The notes: generated by a model from the sequence alone, not told the origin. A DNA stretch of 64,000 nucleotides from an uncultured Candidatus Saccharibacteria bacterium (GCA_964350885.1 CAYGKV010000001.1:68891-132890); one strand, 5' to 3'. Counted from the first letter of the stretch, positions 6,005-49,214 are shown. Program-made: numbers and translations.

Positions 6005-7273
6005 TTAGATTTTCAAAGATTTCAAAAATACGTCTTTGTGCAGGTGCGGGCCGATGATGGCGAGATTGAGGGCGTTGGTCTTTAGGATGTCCTCTGCGAC
6101 GCGTTGGACGTCACTCGCTGACACCTTGTCGATACCTTTGATTATTTCCTCCAGCGAGCGGATTTTGCCGATGGTGATGAGTGAGGTCGCGGCGTTCTGG
6201 GCGATTTCGTCACTCGTTTCTAGCGAGAGGGTGAGCGTGCCTTTGATGTAGGATTTGGCTTTCTCAAGCTCTGTTGCAGATACTTTCACCCGCTTTATTT
6301 TTTTGAATTCAGCGAGAATGGTTTGTATGGTTTTTTCCAATTTTCCGTGCTCTACGCCAGCTTGCACGACGAAGTAGCCTGTGTCCGGGTATTTATCTGC
6401 CCACGCATGGACGGAATAAGCGAGTCCGCGTTTCTCGCGCACTTCGAGGAAGAGGCGACTGCTCATCCCGCCGCCTAGAATAGTAGTAAGGACGGCAAGC
6501 GCGTATTCATCTTTGTGTTCGTATGGATATGCGGGTACACCGAGCATGAGCTGGGTCTGATCGGTTTTCTTTTCTTTTATAGCGACACGAGGTTCAGTTT
6601 GCAGGGCAGAGAAGGTGGCGTAGGTGGGCGCGGGAGCGGATTTGAGGCGGCCGAACTCTTTTTTCACCTTTGCGAGAATTTTTGGAGAAGAGAACGAACC
6701 AGCGATGCAGACGACGGTGTTGGCAGGTACGTAATTCCTCTTGAGATATTCTGAAAAATCTTTGCGTGAGAACGCGCGAATGTTTTCTTTGGGCCCCAGG
6801 ATGGTGCGACCGAGAGCATGATCGCCGAAGATGAGGGCATCGAAGACATTATCCACCGTGCGCATCGGCATATCCTCGTACATATCGATCTCCTGGATAA
6901 TAGCTCCGCGCTCTTTGGTGATCTCCTTTTGTGGCAAGGTCGAGTTGAGAAAGATGTCGGTGATCACATCAAGCGCCGTGTCGAGGTATCGGGCACTCAC
7001 CTTGGCGTAATAGGCAGTCCTATCTTTTGAGGTGAACGCATTGTAGACGCTACCCGTAGCATCGAGCTCTTCGCTGATTGCGCGCGCAGTCTGGCGTTTC
7101 TTGGTTCCTTTGAAAAACATGTGTTCCAAGAAGTGCGCGAGTCCATTCTCGTGCATACTTTCGTATCGCGAACCGGTGCCCGACATAACGACCACCGTCG
7201 CGGTCGTCGTGTCCGGCATGGGAGCAAGTACTACTCGCAGACCGTTCTTTAGCGTGTGAATGTCGTATCTCAT
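6005..7273 (-). CDS. M16 family zinc peptidase (insulinase-like)
   Basis: HFLEHM (HxxEH) inverted zinc-binding motif near the N-terminus. 422 aa. Confidence 0.75.
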   Translation of the reverse strand: MRYDIHTLKNGLRVVLAPMPDTTTATVVVMSGTGSRYESMHENGLAHFLEHMFFKGTKKRQTARAISEELDATGSVYNAFTSKDRTAYYAKVSARYLDTALDVITDIFLNSTLPQKEITKERGAIIQEIDMYEDMPMRTVDNVFDALIFGDHALGRTILGPKENIRAFSRKDFSEYLKRNYVPANTVVCIAGSFSSPKILAKVKKEFGRLKSAPAPTYATFSALQTEPRVAIKEKKTDQTQLMLGVPAYPYEHKDEYALAVLTTILGGGMSSRLFLEVREKRGLAYSVHAWADKYPDTGYFVVQAGVEHGKLEKTIQTILAEFKKIKRVKVSATELEKAKSYIKGTLTLSLETSDEIAQNAATSLITIGKIRSLEEIIKGIDKVSASDVQRVAEDILKTNALNLAIIGPHLHKDVFLKSLKI

Positions 7274-7584
7274 TCCTGTTCAGTTATACCGTAATATTTT
7301 TTTTCATGCTTTTCCACCTCACCAAGAAGTTCGGGGCTAATAAAGGTTTTTGCCCCGACCTTGCAGAGATTGGCGTTTTGATACGCAACATCTTTATCTT
7401 TGAGTGTTTTTTCGATAAATGATCGGAAGTGGGTATCGATTGTTCCCTGTTTCATCTTAGAGTGTTTGTTCGCTAGAAAAAAGGATACATCTCCTGTAGA
7501 AATCCATCCGTTTGCTTTGAGTTCTGATACTTTTGTCCGGTCCAGAACTCGCTGTTTGAGTATCTGATTCATTTTTTCCGACAT
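7270..7584 (-). CDS. hypothetical protein (low-GC)
   Basis: ORF with ATG at 7584 or 7572. Its stop overlaps the M16 start (ATGA). About 40% GC versus about 55% locally. No recognisable motif. Confidence 0.3.
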   Translation of the reverse strand: MSEKMNQILKQRVLDRTKVSELKANGWISTGDVSFFLANKHSKMKQGTIDTHFRSFIEKTLKDKDVAYQNANLCKVGAKTFISPELLGEVEKHEKKYYGITEQE

Positions 7585-7670
7585 GTGACGATAGTACAGC
7601 AGGCTAAGGATAATTACCAATAATCAGGTTTACAGCTTTCTTTTTTATAAAAACGCGCTATTTTGTCTGA

Positions 7671-9584
7671 ATGACGATCAATGAAATCCGTTCGAAATAT
7701 TTAAAGTTTTTTGAGGCTCGAGGACATACCGTGATCCCCTCGGCCTCACTCGTTCCTCAAAACGATCCGACGACACTCTTCACCGGGAGCGGAATGCAGC
7801 CGCTCATTACCTATCTCCTCGGTGCCCCGCACCCGAAAGGGACTCGACTCGTGGATAGTCAGAAGAGTTTCCGCGCCGATGACATCGAAGAGGTGGGGGA
7901 CAACCGCCACACGACATTTTTTGAAATGCTAGGCAACTGGTCTTTGGGGGATTATTTCAAGAAAGAGCAGCTGCCATTTTTTTTCGAGTTTCTAACAGCA
8001 GAAATTGGCCTTGACCCCAAAAATCTGTATGTGACCGCCTTTATCGGAGACAAGAAAAACAACATCCCCCAAGACACTGAGTCTGCCGCTCTTTGGGTCT
8101 CGCTTTTTGCCGAGAAGGGTATTGATGCCAAGATCGTATCAATCGGCTCTGAAGCCGATGGGTACCGCCTTGGCATGCAAGGCGGTCGCATTTTCTATTA
8201 CGAAGCGAAGAAAAATTGGTGGAGCAGGGCGGGGGTGCCCGACAACATGCCCGCGGGAGAGCCAGGAGGTCCGGATTCTGAAATGTTCTACGATTTTGGG
8301 ACACCTCACGATCCGCGATTTGGCCCAGAATGCCACCCGAATTGCGATTGTGGCCGATTCCTTGAGATAGGCAACTCGGTCTTTATGCAGTACATAAAGA
8401 AAGAAGATGGTTCGTTTGCGCTCTTACCCAAACAGAACGTCGACTTTGGCGGTGGACTCGAGCGCATTGCAGCTGCTGTTCAGAACAATGCTGACGTGTT
8501 TGCGACCGACGTGTTTGCTGATGTCATAGGCCTCCTCGTACATTTTTCTGGCAAGGAATATACGGATAGTCGATATACTCGGTCGTTCCGTATCGTTGCA
8601 GATCACATACGCGCGGCGACGTTTATTTTGGGAGATGGGATCATACCCTCCAACACCGAACGCGGGTACGTGCTGCGTCGTCTCTTACGTCGAGCTTCCC
8701 AGCATGCTCAAAAGCTTGGCATCGCAGCAGAAAAATTGGAGGACAGCATGCTTGTGCGTTGCGCCGTCGATATCATAGAAAAATACAAGCAGGCGTATCC
8801 AGAACTAGCGAGTGAGGAAGCCTACCAGCACATTACCAGCGAGATATGGAAAGAAGAGAAACAATTTGCCCACACGCTCGAATCGGGTATGAAGGAATTC
8901 GAAAAGGTGGTGGCGAAAGGGCGCATTTCAGGGGCCGACGCTTCCACGCTATTTACTACCCACGGTTTTCCATTTGAAATGACTACCGAACTGGCGAAAG
9001 AGCGTGGCATCGATGTGGACGTGGAGGGTTTCAAGAGTGAAATGAAAAAACATTCCGAACTCTCGCGCGCAGGAAGCGAACAAAAATTCAAAGGGGGACT
9101 TGCCGATACTTCTGAAAAAACCACGCGTTTACACACCGCACATCACCTACTTCTCAAGGCCCTCCAGGTGGTACTGGGGCCAACCGTTAAGCAGCGTGGC
9201 AGCAACATTACCCAGGAGCGACTTCGCATCGATTTTTCACACGGTGCGAAAATGACTCCCGAACAGATTAAAGAAGTCGAGCGTATCGTCAACGAAAAAA
9301 TAAAAGAATCATTGCCAATGATCCGCTCAACGCTCCCGAAAGCAGAGGCGGAGAAGATTGGTGCGGAACAAGAGTTTGGAGCGAAATATCCCGATACGGT
9401 TTCTGTGTATTCTCTCGGACCCAAAGACGCGACTCAATCCGACCCAAAATTCGATGAAGCATTCTCCATAGAATTCTGCGGCGGGCCCCATGTCGAGAAT
9501 ACCCGCGATCTCGGTACATTCAAAATCCTAAAAGAAGAAGCCGTCGCATCAGGAATTCGCAGGATCAAGGCGGTGCTCGAATAG
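7671..9584 (+). CDS. alaS: alanyl-tRNA synthetase, short form lacking C-Ala domain
   Basis: RSKYLKFFEARGH...FTGSGMQP class II catalytic core. Editing-domain HxxxH (HTAHHLLLKAL) and GGPHV. 637 aa, ending right after the editing domain. Confidence 0.85.
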   Translation: MTINEIRSKYLKFFEARGHTVIPSASLVPQNDPTTLFTGSGMQPLITYLLGAPHPKGTRLVDSQKSFRADDIEEVGDNRHTTFFEMLGNWSLGDYFKKEQLPFFFEFLTAEIGLDPKNLYVTAFIGDKKNNIPQDTESAALWVSLFAEKGIDAKIVSIGSEADGYRLGMQGGRIFYYEAKKNWWSRAGVPDNMPAGEPGGPDSEMFYDFGTPHDPRFGPECHPNCDCGRFLEIGNSVFMQYIKKEDGSFALLPKQNVDFGGGLERIAAAVQNNADVFATDVFADVIGLLVHFSGKEYTDSRYTRSFRIVADHIRAATFILGDGIIPSNTERGYVLRRLLRRASQHAQKLGIAAEKLEDSMLVRCAVDIIEKYKQAYPELASEEAYQHITSEIWKEEKQFAHTLESGMKEFEKVVAKGRISGADASTLFTTHGFPFEMTTELAKERGIDVDVEGFKSEMKKHSELSRAGSEQKFKGGLADTSEKTTRLHTAHHLLLKALQVVLGPTVKQRGSNITQERLRIDFSHGAKMTPEQIKEVERIVNEKIKESLPMIRSTLPKAEAEKIGAEQEFGAKYPDTVSVYSLGPKDATQSDPKFDEAFSIEFCGGPHVENTRDLGTFKILKEEAVASGIRRIKAVLE

Positions 9585-40696: not shown

Positions 40697-40886
40697 TATA
40701 GCCTAGCGAAGCGAGAGACGCGAGAGAAACACCAGTTTATTTCGTGTCCGAGCGAGCGACGGTTAAACGAGAGCAGCGAGTATAGCCTAGCGAAGAGAGA
40801 GAAGCGAGAATACATTCTCGCTTCCGAACGAGCGACGGATACACGAACGAAGTGAGTATTGCCTAGAGAAGCGAAGGAAGGAGTGG
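40697..40886. repeat. three imperfect ~76-84-nt tandem direct repeats in the ctp/antiporter intergenic region
   Basis: Units start at 40697, 40781 and 40857, each beginning TAT(A/T)GCCTAG(C/A)GAAG... and rich in GAGCGA/GAAGCGA. No identical repeat/spacer periodicity, so not a CRISPR array. Confidence 0.6.
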
Positions 40887-42596
40887 CTAGAGGACTTTAA
40901 GCGAAGGCTGCGGGTGTTCGTGGCCAATCGCGATACGTAGCTGTAAATGTTCGATGTGTTTTCCTCGCAAGGCATCATACTTGGTTTTGTCTTTTTTGAA
41001 TTTTACGATCAGCTCAGCCGCATGTTGCCCGCCGAGAAAATGCGGCAATATTACATAATCTATCCCCTCTGCATAGTGTGCGAGGGCATCAGCAACACGG
41101 TGGGCCACAACAACGACGATGACATTCGGGTTTGCTGCCTTTGCGGTTTTATAAATGAGGAGATTTGTCTCGTTGTCGGGTATGGTCGAGACCACAAGCT
41201 CGGTTTTCGAGAGATTAATCGTCTCAAGAAAACCCAAATCTGTTGCATCACCAAATTCAGCGGCCACTCCCCCTTCTGTAAGTGCTCGAGTAGTCTCTGG
41301 ATCATGATCTACAACGAGGAATTTCTCTCCCAAGTTCACGAATGACTCAAGAAAATCATAACCAACGCGATTGCAGCCGAAAAGAACGATTGCATACCCT
41401 TCGCGCCTCGTGCGCGGTTCGTGTGCGTCTGAACGTTCGAAGATTTTGAGCGCCGGCGCAAGCATCTTGTAAATCTGTTCGGAATACATGACGAGGTATG
41501 TAGAGCCGAAAATAGTGATAAGACCGACGAGCGTAACAAGTGAAAGTACTGATTGTTCGACATGCCCGAGCGAGAGAGCAAGTGCGACGAGGATAAGTGA
41601 AAACTCGCTAATCTGCGCGACGGTAACACCAGTCTGGAAACTTGTCTTTCTACGATAACCGAGAAGACCCATGATCGTCATAAGGATGATGGGGTTCCCG
41701 ATAAGCACGAGAGCAGAAAGCGCAACTGCCGCAGGAATGAGATTCGAGATGTCGCTGAATTGCATCTGCGAACCCAAGAATATGAAAAACATCACAATAA
41801 AGAAGTCGCGAAGCGGCACGAGTCGTGCACTTATCTCTAGTCGTGCCGGAAGCGAAGCGAGGGCGATACCGGCTATCAAAGCACCGCTTTCGAGCGAAAA
41901 TCCAAGAAATTGAAAGAGGGCCGCGATACCGACTCCCCACGCTATTGCAAAGAGGAGAAGAAATTCGTGAGATTCAGCTATGAACGTATTGGCGCGTGAA
42001 ATGAAAAAACGCGATGCGAGTATTACAAATGCAATAAGTACTGCACCGGAGAGAATAAATACTCCTACGGTGAGAATTGAGAGATCTCCCGAGGAAAACA
42101 ACGGTACACCCAAAAGCAGCATCACGGCGATAATATCTTGAACGAGAAGAAATCCGATAGCGATTTTCGCGTAGAGTACGTCGAGATCTCCCTTATCGGC
42201 TATGAGCTTCATTATTATTATGGTGCTTGAGAATGAGAGCGCGACAGCCATGTAGAAGGAGGCGAGCGGATCAAAACCAAGCGCGATGCACACGACATAC
42301 CCGACAAATGACGTGAACACTACTTGCCCGACTCCTGCGATGAGTGATACGCGCCCAAATTTTTGGATAATTTGCGGATTGAGATGAAGTCCGACTGTAA
42401 AGAGAAGGATCGCGATGCCTATTTCTCCGAGGAGCGCGAGTGTTTCCGCAGACTGTACAAGATTAAATGCGATGGGGCCTACGATGAGCCCTGTGAGGAT
42501 GTGCCCGATGATGAGAGGCTGACGCAAAAGGCGCATTATGACCGCGACGACGGCCGCTATCACGATGAGTATGCTGAGTTCGGCGAAGAGTTCCAT
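40887..42596 (-). CDS. monovalent cation:proton antiporter-2 (CPA2, KefB-like) with C-terminal RCK/TrkA-N domain
   Basis: 12-13 TM Na_H_exchanger-type domain plus Rossmann GxGxxG (VLFGCNRVGYDF). Confidence 0.8.
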   Translation of the reverse strand: MELFAELSILIVIAAVVAVIMRLLRQPLIIGHILTGLIVGPIAFNLVQSAETLALLGEIGIAILLFTVGLHLNPQIIQKFGRVSLIAGVGQVVFTSFVGYVVCIALGFDPLASFYMAVALSFSSTIIIMKLIADKGDLDVLYAKIAIGFLLVQDIIAVMLLLGVPLFSSGDLSILTVGVFILSGAVLIAFVILASRFFISRANTFIAESHEFLLLFAIAWGVGIAALFQFLGFSLESGALIAGIALASLPARLEISARLVPLRDFFIVMFFIFLGSQMQFSDISNLIPAAVALSALVLIGNPIILMTIMGLLGYRRKTSFQTGVTVAQISEFSLILVALALSLGHVEQSVLSLVTLVGLITIFGSTYLVMYSEQIYKMLAPALKIFERSDAHEPRTRREGYAIVLFGCNRVGYDFLESFVNLGEKFLVVDHDPETTRALTEGGVAAEFGDATDLGFLETINLSKTELVVSTIPDNETNLLIYKTAKAANPNVIVVVVAHRVADALAHYAEGIDYVILPHFLGGQHAAELIVKFKKDKTKYDALRGKHIEHLQLRIAIGHEHPQPSLKVL

Positions 42597-42689: not shown

Positions 42690-44162
42690 ATGTGGTTCAG
42701 GCGATCAAAGGAATCTGCGCGAAAGAACTCCCCTCTCTTTTTTTCCAACACGCTCGGCGGTGCCAAAGAAGAGTTTCTACCGCCGATACATTGGAAAGAG
42801 GTGCGAATGTACAATTGCGGCCCGACGGTCTACGGTCGCCAACACATCGGTAATCTTTCCATGTTTGTCTTCACCGACGTTTTGCGTCGCACGCTTGAAT
42901 ACAACAACTTTTCGGTCAAGCAGGTCATAAATTTTACTGACTTCGGCCATCTCGTTTCGGACGGCGACGAGGGAGAGGATAAGATGACCAAAGGCCTCAA
43001 GCGCGACGGCCTTGCGCCCTCACTTGAAAACATGCGTGTCTTGGGTGAGAAGTACGCAAATATTTTTCTCGAAGACATCCGCGCCCTCAACGTACAGGTC
43101 GATCCGATCACCTTCCCTCGCGCGAGTGATTTTATCCCCCAGCAAATCGCGATGATTCAAACGCTCGGAGAAAAAGGATATACGTACACCACAAAATCCG
43201 GCGTATATTTTGACAGCACGCGATTCGCGAATTACGGCAAGCTCGGCAACATCAATCTCGAAGGACTGAAAGAAGGGGCCCGGGTCAAGGCAGAAGACAA
43301 ACGTACCCCAACCGACTTTTTGCTCTGGAAAACAAGCAAGAAAATCGGATGGGACAGCCCATGGGGCAAGGGCTTCCCTGGCTGGCATATAGAATGCTCC
43401 GCCATGATACGTGCGACACTCGGTATCCAAATCGACATCCACACCGGCGGAATCGAACACATTCCCATCCACCACAACAACGAAATAGCACAATCAGAGT
43501 GTGCGACCGGTAAACATCCATTTTCGCGATTCTGGCTTCACCGCGCGCACATCCAACTCGAGGGGGCGAAAATTGCAAAATCCGGCGGCAACGTTGTCTA
43601 TTTGTCAGATATTATCGAGCGTGGATTCCATCCTCTTTCATTACGCTACCTCTTATTGGGAGCCCACTATCGCACTCCCTCGAATTTCACGTGGGAAGCG
43701 CTCGGTGCCGCCCAGACAGCATACGCAAAACTTCTAGCTCTGCGCCTCTCCATGAAAGACGTTACACCTGGAGCACTGCCTGCGGCGTGGAAGACAAAGT
43801 TCGTGGAGAAAATCAACGACGACTTAGACACGCCAGGCGCACTTGCGGTCATATGGAGCATGACGCGCGACGAGACAATCCCCCCAGAAGAACTCCTCGC
43901 GATGCTCCTTGATGTGGACAGAGTGCTCGGTCTTAATATAAACGAGCCTGATGAGACTGCGCTCGCGCTTGCAGCGCGCGAGATCAAAAGCGAAGTAGCT
44001 ATCGAAGAAGTGCCCGAAAACATTCGGGCCTTACTCCAAGAACGCGAAGAAGCGCGGGCATCAAAAAACTGGCAGCGTGCAGATGAGATACGCGAAAAGA
44101 TCGCAAGCGAGGGATATTCGCTTGAAGATTCAGAAGGTATTTCGCGCGTCTATAAACTCTAA
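42690..44162 (+). CDS. cysS: cysteinyl-tRNA synthetase
   Basis: MYNCGPTVYGRQHIGN (HIGH), WHIECS zinc site, KIAKSGGN (KMSKS variant). True start may be an alternative codon slightly downstream of 42690. Confidence 0.9.
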   Translation: MWFRRSKESARKNSPLFFSNTLGGAKEEFLPPIHWKEVRMYNCGPTVYGRQHIGNLSMFVFTDVLRRTLEYNNFSVKQVINFTDFGHLVSDGDEGEDKMTKGLKRDGLAPSLENMRVLGEKYANIFLEDIRALNVQVDPITFPRASDFIPQQIAMIQTLGEKGYTYTTKSGVYFDSTRFANYGKLGNINLEGLKEGARVKAEDKRTPTDFLLWKTSKKIGWDSPWGKGFPGWHIECSAMIRATLGIQIDIHTGGIEHIPIHHNNEIAQSECATGKHPFSRFWLHRAHIQLEGAKIAKSGGNVVYLSDIIERGFHPLSLRYLLLGAHYRTPSNFTWEALGAAQTAYAKLLALRLSMKDVTPGALPAAWKTKFVEKINDDLDTPGALAVIWSMTRDETIPPEELLAMLLDVDRVLGLNINEPDETALALAAREIKSEVAIEEVPENIRALLQEREEARASKNWQRADEIREKIASEGYSLEDSEGISRVYKL

Positions 44163-44164
44163 CC

Positions 44165-47053
44165 TCACTCTTCTACAACGAAATTGACGAGTCGTCCCGG
44201 TACAACAATAGTACGGAGAATTTTTTTGTCTTCTAAACGTGCTTTAACCGCCTCTTTCGCAGCTCTTTCTACCGCTACCTTATCTGCGTTCGCCGCAACG
44301 CTTGTTTCTCCTCTTGTCTTGCCATTGATTTGTATTGCAATCGTGACAATCGACTCCTTGAGAAGCGCCTGGTCAAACGTCGGCCACAGCTCTTTGTGAA
44401 TTGATTTTTTCTTCCCGCTCGCTGCCCACAAGTCTTCTGCCATATGCGGCGCAAAAGGAGCCAAGATTTTCAGAAATGTTTCCCACTGATTTTTTCCGAT
44501 GTTCTTCTCTTTTTCGATTGCATTTAAGAGGATCATGAGCTGACTGATTGCCGTATTGAATTTCAGGGCGGCAATGTCTTCACCTACTTTTTTGATGGTT
44601 TTATGCAAGAGTCTTTCCATGTCGGGATTTCGTAAATCCCGAATATCGGGATTTACGAAATCCCGACATCTCCACAGCCGCTCCAAAAAACGCCGCACCC
44701 CCACTACCCCATCCGGATTCCATGGATAGCTCGATACTTCATTGTAGGGCCCAATAAATGCCAAATACATGCGCACGGTATCCGAGCCAAGCTTCGCAAC
44801 GACCTCATCTGGATCAATCACGTTGCCCTTAGATTTCGACATCTTCTGCCCATCCGGCCCCATGATGAGAGAACGATTCATTCTCCGGGTATAGGGCTCT
44901 TTGTCTTTCAAAAATCCAAGATCCGACATCGCTTTCTGCCAAAAGCGACTGTACAAGACGTGCATGGTTGTGTGTTCCGCTCCTCCTGAATACAAATCCA
45001 CTGGCATCCATGCGGCAAGTTTCTTTGCGTCTGCAAATTTCTTTTTATTTTTTGGATCCGTATATCGCATGAAATACCACGAAGAATCGACAAAAGTATC
45101 GAGAGTGTCAGTTTCTCTTTCTGCTTTTCCGCCACACGACGGACACTTCACATTCACCCACTTCGTAGCTTTCGCAAGCGGAGATTTGCCGCTTCCTTCA
45201 GGTAGGTAATCTTTTACCTCGGGAAGTTTGACTGGCAAGTCTTTGTCTTGTACCGCAACGGGCCCACACGTGGGGCAGTGGACAATCGGTATGGGCACAC
45301 CCCAGTAGCGTTGACGCGAGACGATCCAATCGCGAAGTTTGTATGTTGTTTTGCGGCGACCAAAACGTTCGATGATTTTCGGTAACGCTTCGTCACTCAT
45401 AAGACCAGAAAACTCTCCGGAATTCACGAGTATCCCCTCCCCCGTGTACGTCGTGGAAATGTGGTGTATTCGCTTCCATCCGATGCGGATGTCATCTCGA
45501 TTGATGAAGCGGTCCATTGCGTCTTTCGAAAGCCAGCTCACATCGTGACGAGAGCGCTCGTGCTCTGCCACTTCTTCTTGAGAATCATCTTCAAGTTGGA
45601 AAAGAAGCGGTGTAAAATGGACAGATCGATTCTGCTTCCCCTCAACGCTAAAATATTTGCCGTGTATCGCTCCTCCAAGCTCGCGCACAAATCGCGCGTT
45701 ACGGTAGCCAGTTTCCTCGCGTATCTCTCGTTTTCCCGCAGCTATCGCATCTTCCCCTTCTTCTATTCCTCCTGACACGCACTCGTTCACGTTTGAGGGC
45801 TTGTAGGTCACCGCGAGGTACTTGTCCTCAGACCAATGCTTCACGTAGGCGAGAACCGAATTGCGCTCTGTATATGACTTATCAGTATGAACAGCATCGA
45901 GCCCCGTCTCCTTGATAATTAACGGTTCAATGACTTCAGTAATCGTGATGCCGTATTTTTTTGCAAACACCCCATCACGATCATCGTGTGCAGGCACACC
46001 CATTACAGCTCCCGTGCCGTAGTGGCCAAGTACATAATCCGCAACATAGACCGGTATTTCCTTGCCAGTTGCCGGGTTAATAGCTTTCACCCCCTTCAAT
46101 TCAATACCCGTCTTGTCCTTCTGGTCTGTCTGACGCTCAAGATCCGTCTTCTTTTTCGCCCCTTCTATATACTTCTCAACTTCTTCCCAATTTTGAATTA
46201 CACTTTTGCCTTTTGCCTTTTGCCTTTTGACTTCTTGTATCCATGGGTGCTCAGGGGCGAGCACGAGGTACGTGGCACCGTATAGCGTGTCGGCGCGGGT
46301 AGTAAAAACCGTAACAATATCGTTCGAAACGCCCCCTTTCTCGGATTTCATTACAAAATCAATCTCCGCACCTTCGGAGCGGCCGATCCAATTGCGTTGC
46401 GATTCTTTTATTTGCTCAGGCCAATCGAGGGCGTCCAAATCGTCGATGAGTCTGTCCGCATAATCGGTAATTTTGATATTCCATTGGAGCATTTGCCTTT
46501 GCACAACCTCAGTGCCACAACGTTCGCATTTCCCAAGAACGACCTGCTCATTCGCCAATACTGTCTTACAGGAAGGGCACCAATTGACTGCTGTTTCTTT
46601 GCGATATACCAGACCTTTTTTAAAAAACTGGAGGAAGAGCCACTGCGTCCATTTATAGTACGCGGGATCACAGGTAACGACTTCTCGCGACCAGTCGAAA
46701 GAAGTGCCCATCGAGCGTATCTGCTTCTTCATGAACTCAATATTCTTGAGCGTCCACACACGTGGATTGATCTTATTTTTTATGGCCGCATTTTCGGCCG
46801 GTAGTCCAAATGCATCAAATCCTATGGGATACAAGACATTTTTCCCTTGCATGCGCATTGCGCGAGCGAGGATGTCGGGCACTGCGAAGGCATACCAGTG
46901 CCCCACGTGCAAATTACCTGATGGATACGGGAACTCCACGAGGAGATACAAGTTTTCTTTGCCTTTTACGAAATCCCGAGTCTTGTAGAGATGATTTTTG
47001 TCCCAAACCTTCTGCCACTTTTTCTCTATTTTCCTATGGTCATATCCACGCAT
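44165..47053 (-). CDS. leuS: leucyl-tRNA synthetase carrying an internal Nudix-hydrolase domain
   Basis: PYPSGNLHVGH, editing-domain TTRADTLYGAT and VPAHDDRD, KMSKS. A Nudix domain with a perfect Nudix box (GGIEEGEDAIAAGKREIREETGY) lies at aa ~395-525, between the editing domain and the LVNSGEF segment. Confidence 0.9.
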   Translation of the reverse strand: MRGYDHRKIEKKWQKVWDKNHLYKTRDFVKGKENLYLLVEFPYPSGNLHVGHWYAFAVPDILARAMRMQGKNVLYPIGFDAFGLPAENAAIKNKINPRVWTLKNIEFMKKQIRSMGTSFDWSREVVTCDPAYYKWTQWLFLQFFKKGLVYRKETAVNWCPSCKTVLANEQVVLGKCERCGTEVVQRQMLQWNIKITDYADRLIDDLDALDWPEQIKESQRNWIGRSEGAEIDFVMKSEKGGVSNDIVTVFTTRADTLYGATYLVLAPEHPWIQEVKRQKAKGKSVIQNWEEVEKYIEGAKKKTDLERQTDQKDKTGIELKGVKAINPATGKEIPVYVADYVLGHYGTGAVMGVPAHDDRDGVFAKKYGITITEVIEPLIIKETGLDAVHTDKSYTERNSVLAYVKHWSEDKYLAVTYKPSNVNECVSGGIEEGEDAIAAGKREIREETGYRNARFVRELGGAIHGKYFSVEGKQNRSVHFTPLLFQLEDDSQEEVAEHERSRHDVSWLSKDAMDRFINRDDIRIGWKRIHHISTTYTGEGILVNSGEFSGLMSDEALPKIIERFGRRKTTYKLRDWIVSRQRYWGVPIPIVHCPTCGPVAVQDKDLPVKLPEVKDYLPEGSGKSPLAKATKWVNVKCPSCGGKAERETDTLDTFVDSSWYFMRYTDPKNKKKFADAKKLAAWMPVDLYSGGAEHTTMHVLYSRFWQKAMSDLGFLKDKEPYTRRMNRSLIMGPDGQKMSKSKGNVIDPDEVVAKLGSDTVRMYLAFIGPYNEVSSYPWNPDGVVGVRRFLERLWRCRDFVNPDIRDLRNPDMERLLHKTIKKVGEDIAALKFNTAISQLMILLNAIEKEKNIGKNQWETFLKILAPFAPHMAEDLWAASGKKKSIHKELWPTFDQALLKESIVTIAIQINGKTRGETSVAANADKVAVERAAKEAVKARLEDKKILRTIVVPGRLVNFVVEE
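44619..44669. repeat. inverted pair of the 24-nt palindromic repeat (ATGTCGGGATTTCGTAAATCCCGA-ata-reverse complement) inside leuS coding sequence
   Basis: 51-nt near-perfect palindrome. In frame it encodes DFVNPDIRDLRNPDM in LeuRS. Same unit at 52503-52528 and 60762-60789. Confidence 0.7.
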
Positions 47054-47096: not shown

Positions 47097-48080
47097 TTAG
47101 AAGTTTTTTTGCTTGGAGAATGGAGGGTATCGTTCTGGATCTATAGTGCGTTCAAAGCAAGTCTCGCCAGCGCCATGCTGCCATGTGGATTGTTCGAGGA
47201 TCATCCCCTTCTCGGATGTCATACCAATAGGTTCTGCAGGCATAGGCGCGATCACCGGACGCGAAACGCCCATTGAACTTGGTCGCGTCTCTGCATTGAA
47301 TGTCGCGCAGAGCTTGAAGGAGAGGCTGCCAGTTGTCTGGTACGTGTACATTTCACCAGTTTGTGGGTCGAGAGGAATAATGACACCGCTGATCGGATCC
47401 TGAAGTTCCCCCAGTGTCGCAGGTAACACCTCTTTCTGCTGCCAGTAATTGACGATCTGATACTGAATGTTCGTGAGATCGTTGACTTTCTGATCGTCGA
47501 AACGGTACAAGCGAATCTGATTGGGTGAACCCATAATGAAGAACCCCGTCGCGATAGACGCGAAGACGACAAGTCCTGCACCCCACCCGATCATGCGTGC
47601 TCGCTCTGGGTACTGAATCCAGTAACCCCAGATGTCCGCAAGAAAGTGGAGAAGGCCGGCTCCCGCGACAAGCACAACGACGAGAACTTTCAGAATGAAG
47701 CGCATCGTAATCTCACCACCCAAGAAGAAATTGATGAGCGTGATGAGGGCCCCAGCGACTGCCGCGCCGGCAATGAATACGGTGAGATACAGCACCCATC
47801 GGCGAATCCAGAGATCGCGTTTCTCCGGTGTCCGGACGATGTCTTTGCGGACAAGACGAATCAAAAGGAGGAATAACGGAAAAAGCACGATGAGCGCCGC
47901 CATTTCGTATCGAATACTCGAAGAGTACGGATCCACGTAATAGTTCAACACGTCGGGAAACGCGTAGTTAATGTACTCGAAAAGTAGGTTGATAAGAGCG
48001 AATATGCTGATATAGAGCGCAACCATCGCCCCTGCCCAGAGGAAAAAATCCTTTGGTGTTACTTTTAGTTTAGTATCCAT
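47097..48080 (-). CDS. hypothetical polytopic membrane protein
   Basis: About 6 TM helices in the N-terminal 200 aa, soluble C-terminal domain. No recognisable motif. Confidence 0.45.
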   Translation of the reverse strand: MDTKLKVTPKDFFLWAGAMVALYISIFALINLLFEYINYAFPDVLNYYVDPYSSSIRYEMAALIVLFPLFLLLIRLVRKDIVRTPEKRDLWIRRWVLYLTVFIAGAAVAGALITLINFFLGGEITMRFILKVLVVVLVAGAGLLHFLADIWGYWIQYPERARMIGWGAGLVVFASIATGFFIMGSPNQIRLYRFDDQKVNDLTNIQYQIVNYWQQKEVLPATLGELQDPISGVIIPLDPQTGEMYTYQTTGSLSFKLCATFNAETRPSSMGVSRPVIAPMPAEPIGMTSEKGMILEQSTWQHGAGETCFERTIDPERYPPFSKQKNF

Positions 48081-48113: not shown

Positions 48114-49214
48114 CTAGCTGTGTCTAAATTCCATTACGTCCCCATCCTCTACCACATACTCCTTGCCTTCGCTGCGCACAAGGCCCTTTTCGCGGGCTTT
48201 GGCCCACGATCCTGTCTCAAATAGAATGTCCCAGCGAATGACATCAGCGCGGATGAATTTGTCGCGGAAATCACTGTGTATGGCAGCACCCGCTTCGGGA
48301 GCGGTTGACCCCCGGCGAATGGTCCACGCGCGAGATTCCTTCTCGCCTGTCGTGAGGAAAGAAATGAGATCGAGGAGTTTGTACCCCGCCTTAATGAGGT
48401 CATCGAGTCCGTCGCTCGCGACTCCAAGCTCGCGACGAAAATCCGCGCGCTCGTCGTCGTGGACATCAGAAAGATCACTCTCTACTCCAGCGTCAACAAT
48501 CACATACTGCGCTTTTTCGGATTCAAGAAATTCCTTGAGCATGCGCCATCGCTCTCCCCCCTCAGCATCCACATTGACCGCACCACTTTTCCTATTGAGG
48601 ACATACAGTATCGGCTTCATCGTGAGCAATTGCAGACTCTTCGCGATTACTTGCTCGTGTTCGTCAAACACCACCACGCGCGCTGCTTTCCCCGCCTGAA
48701 GCACCGGCACGATTTTGCGCAAAACATCCCGCTCGGCAATAAGCTCTTTATCACCACCCTTTGCATCGCGTTCCACCCGCTCAAGCCGCTTCTCTGCCGT
48801 TTGCATGTCTGCAAGCACAAGCTCCATATCAATGATCTCGATGTCATGCCGCGGATCCGTCTCTCCATGCACATGATGCACATCCTCGTCGTCAAACATC
48901 CGCACCACTTCCGCAATGGCATCCACTTCACGAATATGAGTGAGAAATTGATTGCCGAGTCCCTCCCCTTGCGAGGCACCCTTTACCAAGCCGGCGATGT
49001 CGACAAATTCCACTGCCGCAGGCACTTTCTTCTCCGATTTCGACATTTCTGCAAGCTTGTCGAGCCGAAAATCCGGCACCGCGACCACGCCTACGGATGG
49101 GTCAATGGTGCAAAATGGATAATTTTCTGCCGGCACACCCTTCTTGGTGAGCGCATTAAAAAGCGTCGATTTACCGACGTTGGGGAGCCCTACAATTCCG
49201 ATACTCAAAGACAT
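48114..49214 (-). CDS. ychF: ribosome-binding ATPase YchF
   Basis: GIVGLPNVGKSTLFNAL P-loop, TGS C-terminal domain (YVVEDGDVMEFR). Confidence 0.9.
   Translation of the reverse strand: MSLSIGIVGLPNVGKSTLFNALTKKGVPAENYPFCTIDPSVGVVAVPDFRLDKLAEMSKSEKKVPAAVEFVDIAGLVKGASQGEGLGNQFLTHIREVDAIAEVVRMFDDEDVHHVHGETDPRHDIEIIDMELVLADMQTAEKRLERVERDAKGGDKELIAERDVLRKIVPVLQAGKAARVVVFDEHEQVIAKSLQLLTMKPILYVLNRKSGAVNVDAEGGERWRMLKEFLESEKAQYVIVDAGVESDLSDVHDDERADFRRELGVASDGLDDLIKAGYKLLDLISFLTTGEKESRAWTIRRGSTAPEAGAAIHSDFRDKFIRADVIRWDILFETGSWAKAREKGLVRSEGKEYVVEDGDVMEFRHS

Follow-up and report, generated by a model that had tools for sequence, protein, structure and literature searches.

Aminoacyl-tRNA synthetases are among the most studied of all enzymes, and bacterial leucyl-tRNA synthetase (LeuRS) is a drug target. 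A domain-insertion survey from 2026 reports PF13603, the editing domain of LeuRS, in 213 events always as the module inserted and in none as the host (PMC13114784). The gene described here, leuS, lies on a 64-kb stretch of DNA recorded as coming from an uncultured Candidatus Saccharibacteria bacterium (GCA_964350885.1, CAYGKV010000001.1:68891-132890); the whole stretch, 64,000 nucleotides long, is referred to below as the window, and coordinates count from its first letter. Its product shares with the solved LeuRS enzymes of Thermus thermophilus (PDB 1h3n) and Escherichia coli (4aq7) the order of domains and intact HIGH, KMSKS and editing motifs. However, where the solved enzymes have about 10 residues, this protein has a Nudix domain of 156 residues, and PF13603, never a host in the survey, is here the host of another domain. 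The following features define this arrangement:

44165–47053, minus strand: leuS, leucine--tRNA ligase, the host protein (962-residue open reading frame; TIGR00396; match to 1h3n)
45326–46384, minus strand: connective peptide 1 (CP1) editing domain, about residues 224–576, host of the Nudix insert (PF13603 match on both sides)
45458–45925, minus strand: inserted Nudix domain, residues 377–532, 156 residues (not in T. thermophilus or E. coli LeuRS)
45515–45784, minus strand: Pfam NUDIX (PF00293) match, residues 424–513 (34.5 bits)
45704–45772, minus strand: Nudix box GX5EX7REUXEEXGU = GGIEEGEDAIAAGKREIREETGY, residues 428–450 (read from the sequence)

The limits of the insert follow from the alignment with 1h3n, in which residues 2–376 of the query pair with T. 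thermophilus residues 2–363 and residues 533–732 with residues 374–579; the insert is thus residues 377–532 and takes the place of about 10 residues. In an insert-less Patescibacteria LeuRS of 807 residues (48% identical) about 20 residues occupy this position. The original prediction, made from the sequence alone, had allowed other LeuRS about 40 residues here, which proved too many, the range being 10–20 (about 10 in T. thermophilus, about 20 in this insert-less member of the Candidate Phyla Radiation, CPR). It had also placed an insert of ~130 residues at residues ~395–525, after the end of the editing domain; nucleotides 45479–45871 do correspond to residues 395–525 on the minus strand and the insert is real, but it extends over residues 377–532 and lies within CP1. 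PF13603 is matched over model positions 1–158 ahead of the insert and the match resumes beyond it, which places the Nudix domain inside CP1 and not beyond its end. For the same reason the LVNSGEF segment, previously thought to lie beyond the editing domain, is still part of CP1. The limits of CP1 were transferred through the 1h3n alignment from T. thermophilus residues 224–417, which we take to be its extent in that structure. The protein has three levels of nesting, with the Nudix domain in CP1 and CP1 in the Rossmann-fold catalytic domain. A surface loop of CP1, 16 residues past the catalytic Asp pair (the distance from the AHDDRD editing motif to the start of the insert), is replaced by an autonomously folding domain of about 156 residues.

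The proposal that this insert is a complete Nudix domain has held up at the level of profile, motif and predicted fold. In the whole protein the PF00293 match (34.5 bits, E = 2.3e-8) lies above the gathering score of 21.1, and a search with the excised insert, as had been suggested, raises it to 37.8 bits. The Nudix box stands at exactly the nucleotides first given for it and has all canonical positions (G428-x5-E434-x7-R442-E443-I-R-E446-E447-T-G449-Y450). In the six frames of the window, the strict box and the family profile each occur only once, at this place. AlphaFold2 modeling of the insert with a 31-sequence alignment gives the strand and helix order of a Nudix domain, with the α/β/α sandwich of that fold, at a predicted local distance difference test (pLDDT) score of 94.6 and a predicted template modeling (pTM) score of 0.88. 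Foldseek also gives a Nudix fold for this model, and in the full-length AlphaFold2 model (pLDDT 82.4) the Nudix region is the most confident part (94–97). The insert is therefore not an ordinary extension of the editing domain, its predicted structure being a Nudix fold, and a chance motif is rejected by the PF00293 score, the predicted fold and the single strict box in six frames. The protein belongs both to the bacterial LeuRS family and to the Nudix superfamily, with which it agrees in every sequence and fold feature that can be tested; none of the characterised Nudix subfamilies demonstrably includes it.

The host protein is a bacterial LeuRS with an unbroken reading frame over 962 residues, the length originally predicted. 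It scores 979.7 bits against NCBIfam TIGR00396 (cut-off 548.4), the match being split in two by the insert, aligns with T. thermophilus LeuRS at E = 1.9e-223, and is 100% identical to a protein already in the databases (P0001). It is the LeuRS of a Patescibacteria (CPR) bacterium, with Candidatus Kaiserbacteria as the closest named relatives. Four signature motifs align with those of the T. thermophilus enzyme:

46898–46909, minus strand: HIGH signature HVGH, residues 49–52, synthetic site (alignment to T. thermophilus LeuRS)
44831–44845, minus strand: KMSKS signature, residues 737–741, synthetic site (alignment to T. thermophilus LeuRS)
46286–46303, minus strand: TTRADT, residues 251–256, threonine-rich editing-site motif (aligned to T. 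thermophilus TTRPDT)
45974–45991, minus strand: AHDDRD, residues 355–360, editing site with two conserved Asp (aligned to T. thermophilus AHDQRD)

All four are invariant in an alignment of 63 sequences, as are the editing residues T252, R253, D255 and T256 in the first editing motif and A355, H356, D357, R359 and D360 in the second. Judged by these residues, both the synthetic and the editing active sites are intact. The idea that the Nudix domain substitutes for a decayed editing site is rejected, since the editing residues are invariant.

The Nudix domain is kept in 119 of the 120 nearest database homologues. These homologues are 56–100% identical to the query by BLASTP (one, P0118, is anomalous, with 76% identity over only 45% of the query), and the named members among them belong to Candidatus Kaiserbacteria, the Parcubacteria group and the Patescibacteria group. 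The strict GX5EX7REX2EEXG box is kept in 114 of the 120, its x positions varying freely. Across the 63 aligned sequences the mean pairwise identity of the insert is 42.7%, against 71.6% for the LeuRS core. Within the box, G428, E443, E447 and G449 do not vary, conservation reaches 93% or more at E434, R442 and E446, and G429 and Y450 are also invariant or nearly so; the same holds outside the box for R397, H406, Y412, N475, L487, E499, H503 and W507. As read from this alignment, the metal-binding and catalytic residues are under purifying selection, whereas the rest of the insert diverges faster than its host. Such rapid change around catalytic positions that stay fixed marks a retained enzyme. 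The catalytic plausibility claimed at the outset gains from the presence of all box residues, which are invariant or nearly so over the 62 homologues, and the insert is probably an active pyrophosphohydrolase. Its GC content and its GC content at third codon positions (GC3) equal those of the rest of leuS, which argues that the insertion is old; a recent horizontal insertion is rejected on the same grounds. The identical 962-residue gene has been assembled independently in three samples (ERZ27247817, ERR3094294 and ERR3094293).

The LeuRS-Nudix layout is common to hundreds of ultra-small CPR bacteria. An exhaustive HMMER search with the insert over 1.84 billion cluster representatives returned 293 proteins at E ≤ 1e-3 and 148 at E ≤ 1e-10, most of them LeuRS, as their N-terminal YDHKKIEKKWQ motif together with HIGH and KMSKS signatures shows. 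In a genome scan with a six-sequence alignment as query and one genome per species of the Genome Taxonomy Database (GTDB), the best 80 of at least 156 relatives were examined, and in about 75 of these 80 loci the match lay within a LeuRS open reading frame. The labels of the genomes found in the scan include Kaiser-, Vogel-, Taylor-, Nomura-, Adler-, Moran-, Uhr- and Gracilibacteria, Paceibacterota and Saccharibacteria. The Nudix family or the LeuRS-Nudix protein also occurs in metagenome-assembled genomes recorded as Gammaproteobacteria, Clostridia, Bacillota, Bacilli and Woesearchaeota (loci L016, L061, L064, L066, L067, L070, L078, L079, L083-L085 and L087-L089); these could be mislabelled bins, contamination or horizontal transfer.

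This Nudix family of about 160 residues has been captured repeatedly by synthetases. In LeuRS it occupies at least three sites, i.e., site A at the N-terminal edge of CP1 (after window residues ~210–245), site B, where the window copy is found, and site C in the Zn-ribbon region (after window residue ~636), and a single LeuRS may carry up to three copies. Capture is not limited to LeuRS or to class I synthetases, since one class II prolyl-tRNA synthetase (ProRS; P0260, 643 residues) has a member of the family at residues ~382–539, between its anticodon-binding and C-terminal domains. Free-standing members of about 160 residues also exist, which are 32–37% identical to the window insert. One of them (locus L005, 6001–6492) lies 579 nucleotides upstream of an insert-less 807-residue leuS (7071–9494) on the same strand. 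One subclade differs in its box, which reads GGxxxGQ-x7-AE-x2-EETG, with Gln in place of the first Glu and Ala in place of the Arg. The altered copy is typically the second of a tandem pair at site A, in which the first copy has a canonical box and the second often an altered one, and further altered copies lie at site C, in the ProRS and in some free-standing proteins (e.g., P0121 residues 379–543, P0122 residues 405–569, P0123 residues 381–541, P0150 residues 662–823, P0274, P0288 and P0305). Such a canonical/altered pair is possibly a pseudo-dimer with one inactive or regulatory subunit. The window copy itself sits in the canonical-box clade.

An additional layer of complexity comes from other hydrolase modules that related LeuRS carry. 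An α/β hydrolase of about 170 residues is present at site A in 97 of the 120 nearest homologues (e.g., P0011, residues ~245–420); it matches PF06821, PF12697 and PF00561, is nearest to Bacillus subtilis YdeN (1uxo, E = 7e-11) and keeps the G-H-S-x-G nucleophile elbow. The window LeuRS is among the 23 of 120 in which this module is absent (residues 233–249, nucleotides ~46307–46357). Its presence varies among close relatives, and the Nudix domain is almost always retained. HAD_2 phosphatase inserts occur in other CPR LeuRS, one of them in the C-terminal half of the enzyme at locus L007 (6955–8838), where leuS is in pieces, probably through frameshift errors in long reads. A further LeuRS fragment (P0162, 703 residues) combines a PD-(D/E)XK nuclease domain (PF13366) at site A (residues 25–138) with a Nudix domain at site B. 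Giant LeuRS reading frames are also found, of 1735 residues (L048, 2196–7400, plus strand), 1559 residues (L029, 3639–8315, plus strand) and 1390 residues (L044, 588–4757, plus strand), and the first of these, from a Taylorbacteria genome, contains three Nudix domains, an α/β hydrolase and a HAD_2 domain. These layouts suggest that the putative bifunctional LeuRS with a nested Nudix hydrolase is part of a lineage-wide loading of hydrolase modules into this synthetase. Similar families also meet outside LeuRS, as at locus L008 (545–10375), where the free-standing family member P0288 lies two genes from a free Ser_hydrolase (PF06821) and HAD_2 genes, in a cluster whose other members are three further Nudix genes, the genes for a Ham1p-like ITPase and a 2H phosphoesterase, a LOG-like gene and His_Phos_1.

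What the embedded hydrolase may act on has to be judged from its relatives and from its host. Synthetases of both classes form the dinucleoside and nucleoside polyphosphates Ap4A, Ap3A, Ap4N and p4A from the enzyme-bound adenylate, and dinucleoside polyphosphates (ApnN) are degraded by Nudix enzymes such as RppH/NudH, MutT1 and NUDT2 (PMC7705103). A search of the profile against PDB sequences finds the lupin Ap4A hydrolase 1f3y first (E = 2.2e-7) and then the decapping effector AvrM14. Structural and sequence neighbours of the insert include AvrM14, oomycete and Magnaporthe decapping Nudix effectors, DDP1/DIPP1 and E. coli RppH, and the structural ones tend weakly to diadenosine polyphosphate (ApnA) and DIPP hydrolases rather than to MutT-type NTPases. 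Nudix hydrolases of the ApnA type have a conserved X-loop tyrosine downstream of the box, in a motif defined by Dunn et al., and two further specificity motifs past the box are a conserved proline in ADP-ribose diphosphatases and the string SQPWPFPQS in NADH diphosphatases (PMC5389931). No string like that of the NADH type is present in the insert. The ADP-ribose proline, which Dunn et al. in 1999 reportedly placed about 15–16 residues after the box, is not found, positions +15 and +16 being G465 and K466.

Because synthetases make ApnN, Nudix enzymes degrade ApnN and the same Nudix family is fused to both class I and class II synthetases, the model that we favour, at somewhat less than an even chance, is that of a tethered (di)nucleoside polyphosphate hydrolase that would remove adenylate-derived by-products at their source. 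In this model the insert would be a Mg2+-dependent pyrophosphohydrolase, tethered to LeuRS as an independent module, and Ap4A, Ap3A, Ap4N and p4A are the substrate class that we favour for it. These by-products would arise when ATP or another nucleotide, instead of tRNA, attacks the enzyme-bound aminoacyl-adenylate, and the fused Nudix domain would cleave them to AMP and NTP where they are made. Such cleavage would save adenylate and prevent the formation of stray alarmones or Np4 caps in a bacterium whose genome is tiny and which lacks de novo synthesis of nucleotides. The aminoacyl-adenylate itself was considered as a direct substrate and set aside as chemically unlikely, since it is an acyl-phosphate mixed anhydride and Nudix chemistry is directed at pyrophosphate linkages.

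Several observations weigh against a dedicated ApnN hydrolase. The structural signal is shallow, with Z declining smoothly from 16 to 12 over many specificities, and the top structural match, 2AZW, has no known function. The NCBIfam RppH equivalog (PRK00714) scores 23.4 bits against a cut-off of 116, other named Nudix equivalogs also falling far below theirs. The ApnA tyrosine, Tyr87 in human NUDT2, is not reliably placed, although an aromatic pair (Y/F467 and F/Y468) is conserved 17–18 residues past the box in a predicted strand. To our knowledge, LeuRS is not among the strongest producers of ApnA. Just one of the seven free-standing genes examined adjoins leuS, P0288 belongs to a general nucleotide house-cleaning cluster, and the YdeN-like serine hydrolase, HAD_2 and PD-(D/E)XK companions are not explained by Ap4A.

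It is a real possibility that the Nudix chemistry is unrelated to leucylation. On that account, which we consider possible although on balance unlikely, a general house-cleaning or salvage enzyme is merely parked in LeuRS, whose surface loops would offer permissive sites in a gene that is both essential and constitutively expressed, in a streamlined genome. It would hydrolyse damaged or surplus (d)NTPs or NDP-X, with the α/β-hydrolase and HAD modules of relatives working alongside. The families clustered at L008 (Nudix, Ser_hydrolase and HAD_2) are the same as those inserted into LeuRS, the 1735-residue LeuRS of L048 unites all three kinds of module, most free-standing copies lie away from leuS, and the α/β hydrolase has been gained or lost among close relatives (97 with, 23 without). 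However, chance parking is hard to square with a single family that occupies three or more LeuRS sites, occurs in several copies and has entered ProRS as well. No other host protein was seen among the matches that could be classified by Pfam, BLAST or the N-terminal motif (many of the 150 listed being unclassified fragments), and the structural neighbours are, if weakly, nearer to ApnA and DIPP hydrolases than to MutT-type NTPases.

A broader account takes in the companion modules. Patescibacteria LeuRS would then be a scaffold for one to three Nudix domains, a YdeN-like serine hydrolase and a HAD phosphatase, which together would form a clean-up machine for by-products or mis-made intermediates of aminoacylation. 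Its targets could be ApnN, aminoacyl-adenylates that are non-cognate or have been released, the products of their breakdown, and mis-acylated esters, and the window Nudix would be the most widely retained core module. This larger proposal strikes us as rather unlikely.

Two further explanations change either the substrate or the nature of the domain. A module for RNA 5'-end pyrophosphohydrolysis or decapping, similar to RppH, AvrM14 or DIPP, could act on RNA held by the synthetase, removing 5'-triphosphate, NAD or Np4 caps from tRNA-Leu precursors or other RNAs. This would fit the presence of AvrM14, the oomycete and Magnaporthe effectors, DDP1/DIPP1 and RppH among the structural and sequence neighbours, as well as the best, albeit sub-threshold, NCBIfam Nudix match, which is an RNA pyrophosphohydrolase. 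It would also fit the geometry of the host, in which CP1 contacts the acceptor end of the tRNA, beside the tRNA 5' end. Yet the RppH equivalog scores far under its cut-off, RNase P generates the 5' ends of mature tRNAs as monophosphates, and the insertions at site C and in ProRS are not near the acceptor-binding CP1; we regard decapping as improbable. A catalytically dead Nudix fold, sensing nucleotides or binding protein or RNA so as to modulate editing or aminoacylation, has a similarly slim chance. Non-enzymatic Nudix domains are known (PMC5389931), CFIm25 binds Ap4A without cleaving it (PMC7705103), and the sister subclade has the altered box. Nevertheless, the window copy holds every canonical box residue, and these are the most conserved positions of a fast-evolving insert, which is the pattern expected for retained catalysis. 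Finally, an artefact (frameshift, mis-assembly or mis-called reading frame) or an ordinary editing-domain extension with a chance motif is extremely improbable, the frame being continuous, the gene identical in three assemblies, the architecture shared by 119 of the 120 nearest homologues and by about 75 of the 80 best-matching loci, the insert equal to the rest of leuS in GC and GC3, and the Nudix fold predicted with high confidence; frameshift, mis-assembly and a chimera with a separate gene are rejected by the identical assemblies and the shared architecture.

In the window, leuS is convergent with cysS (42690–44162, plus strand), and their stop codons are just 2 nucleotides apart, which leaves no space for separate terminators. 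Upstream of leuS lie the genes for a DUF5671 membrane protein (47097–48080, minus strand) and ychF (48114–49214, minus strand), and the gene order of cysS, DUF5671 and ychF around leuS is the same in locus L001. No second leuS appears in the list of open reading frames of the window, for which the Nudix family alone was scanned for specifically. ARAGORN calls a 94-nucleotide tRNA-Arg(GCG) at 40876–40969 (plus strand), which overlaps the 3' end of a 569-residue reading frame at 40887–42596 (minus strand). Rfam finds no tRNA there even at E ≤ 1, and the call is probably a false positive. Across the window, Rfam and ARAGORN together give no well-supported tRNA or other Rfam family.

In public databases the architecture is already visible as precomputed Pfam matches. 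The proteins are named 'class I tRNA ligase family protein', 'alpha/beta fold hydrolase' or 'hypothetical protein'; full LeuRS such as P0014, P0064 and P0068 carry the latter two names, and a free Nudix protein of 162 residues (P0305) is named 'leuS'. Recognition of the family thus has practical value for annotation, many of these proteins being mislabelled. A search of the open-access literature yielded no account of a Nudix domain within LeuRS or another synthetase, and an earlier description elsewhere is possible; tRNA synthetases go unmentioned in a Nudix clan survey from 2017 (PMC5389931).

If ApnN is indeed degraded at its site of synthesis, the protein would be a natural, fused example of alarmone control coupled to translation, and would provide a handle on the nucleotide economy of CPR bacteria, which lack de novo nucleotide synthesis. 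Should LeuRS instead be a scaffold for several hydrolases, a new layer of quality control or nucleotide economy would lie on top of the classical CP1 editing site. The entry of a single Nudix family into synthetases of both classes, at three or more sites, is in any case an unusually clear instance of recurrent domain insertion and calls for a functional explanation. The architecture is surprising for so well studied an enzyme, it is widespread, and its function is directly testable.

Compared with characterised Nudix enzymes, the insert stands apart in both sequence and setting. It is only 14–19% identical to lupin 1f3y, Mycobacterium tuberculosis Rv2985/MutT1, T. thermophilus Ndx1, DDP1/DIPP1, AvrM14 and RppH, and the free-standing ApnA, DIPP and decapping enzymes are, unlike the insert, not embedded in another enzyme. 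Its family residues R397, H406-W407, Y412, N475, E499, H503 and W507 have no tie to known specificity motifs. The Enterococcus faecalis Nudix protein 2AZW, a structural-genomics entry with 17% identity, is a stand-alone protein with no known substrate (PMC5389931). Among synthetases, a class Ia enzyme with an extra enzymatic domain has its own curated model in NCBIfam, i.e., isoleucyl-tRNA synthetase (IleRS) with a GNAT domain (NF040702, ileS_w_GNAT); that model concerns a different synthetase and a GNAT instead of a Nudix domain, the window protein scores 78 bits against its cut-off of 1999, and NCBIfam holds no comparable model for LeuRS with Nudix. The NadM-Nudix fusions likewise unite in one polypeptide a HIGH-motif, adenylate-forming enzyme and a Nudix domain for a related nucleotide (PMC7824862). 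However, the NMNAT-Nudix proteins are end-to-end fusions in which the Nudix domain acts on NAD or ADP-ribose, whereas the Nudix domain of the window protein is inserted internally, into the editing domain of a synthetase. A Nudix domain at this place, conserved across hundreds of uncultured species, would represent an unrecognised bifunctional synthetase, and its presence contradicts the generalisation that the LeuRS editing domain is always an insert and never a host (PMC13114784).

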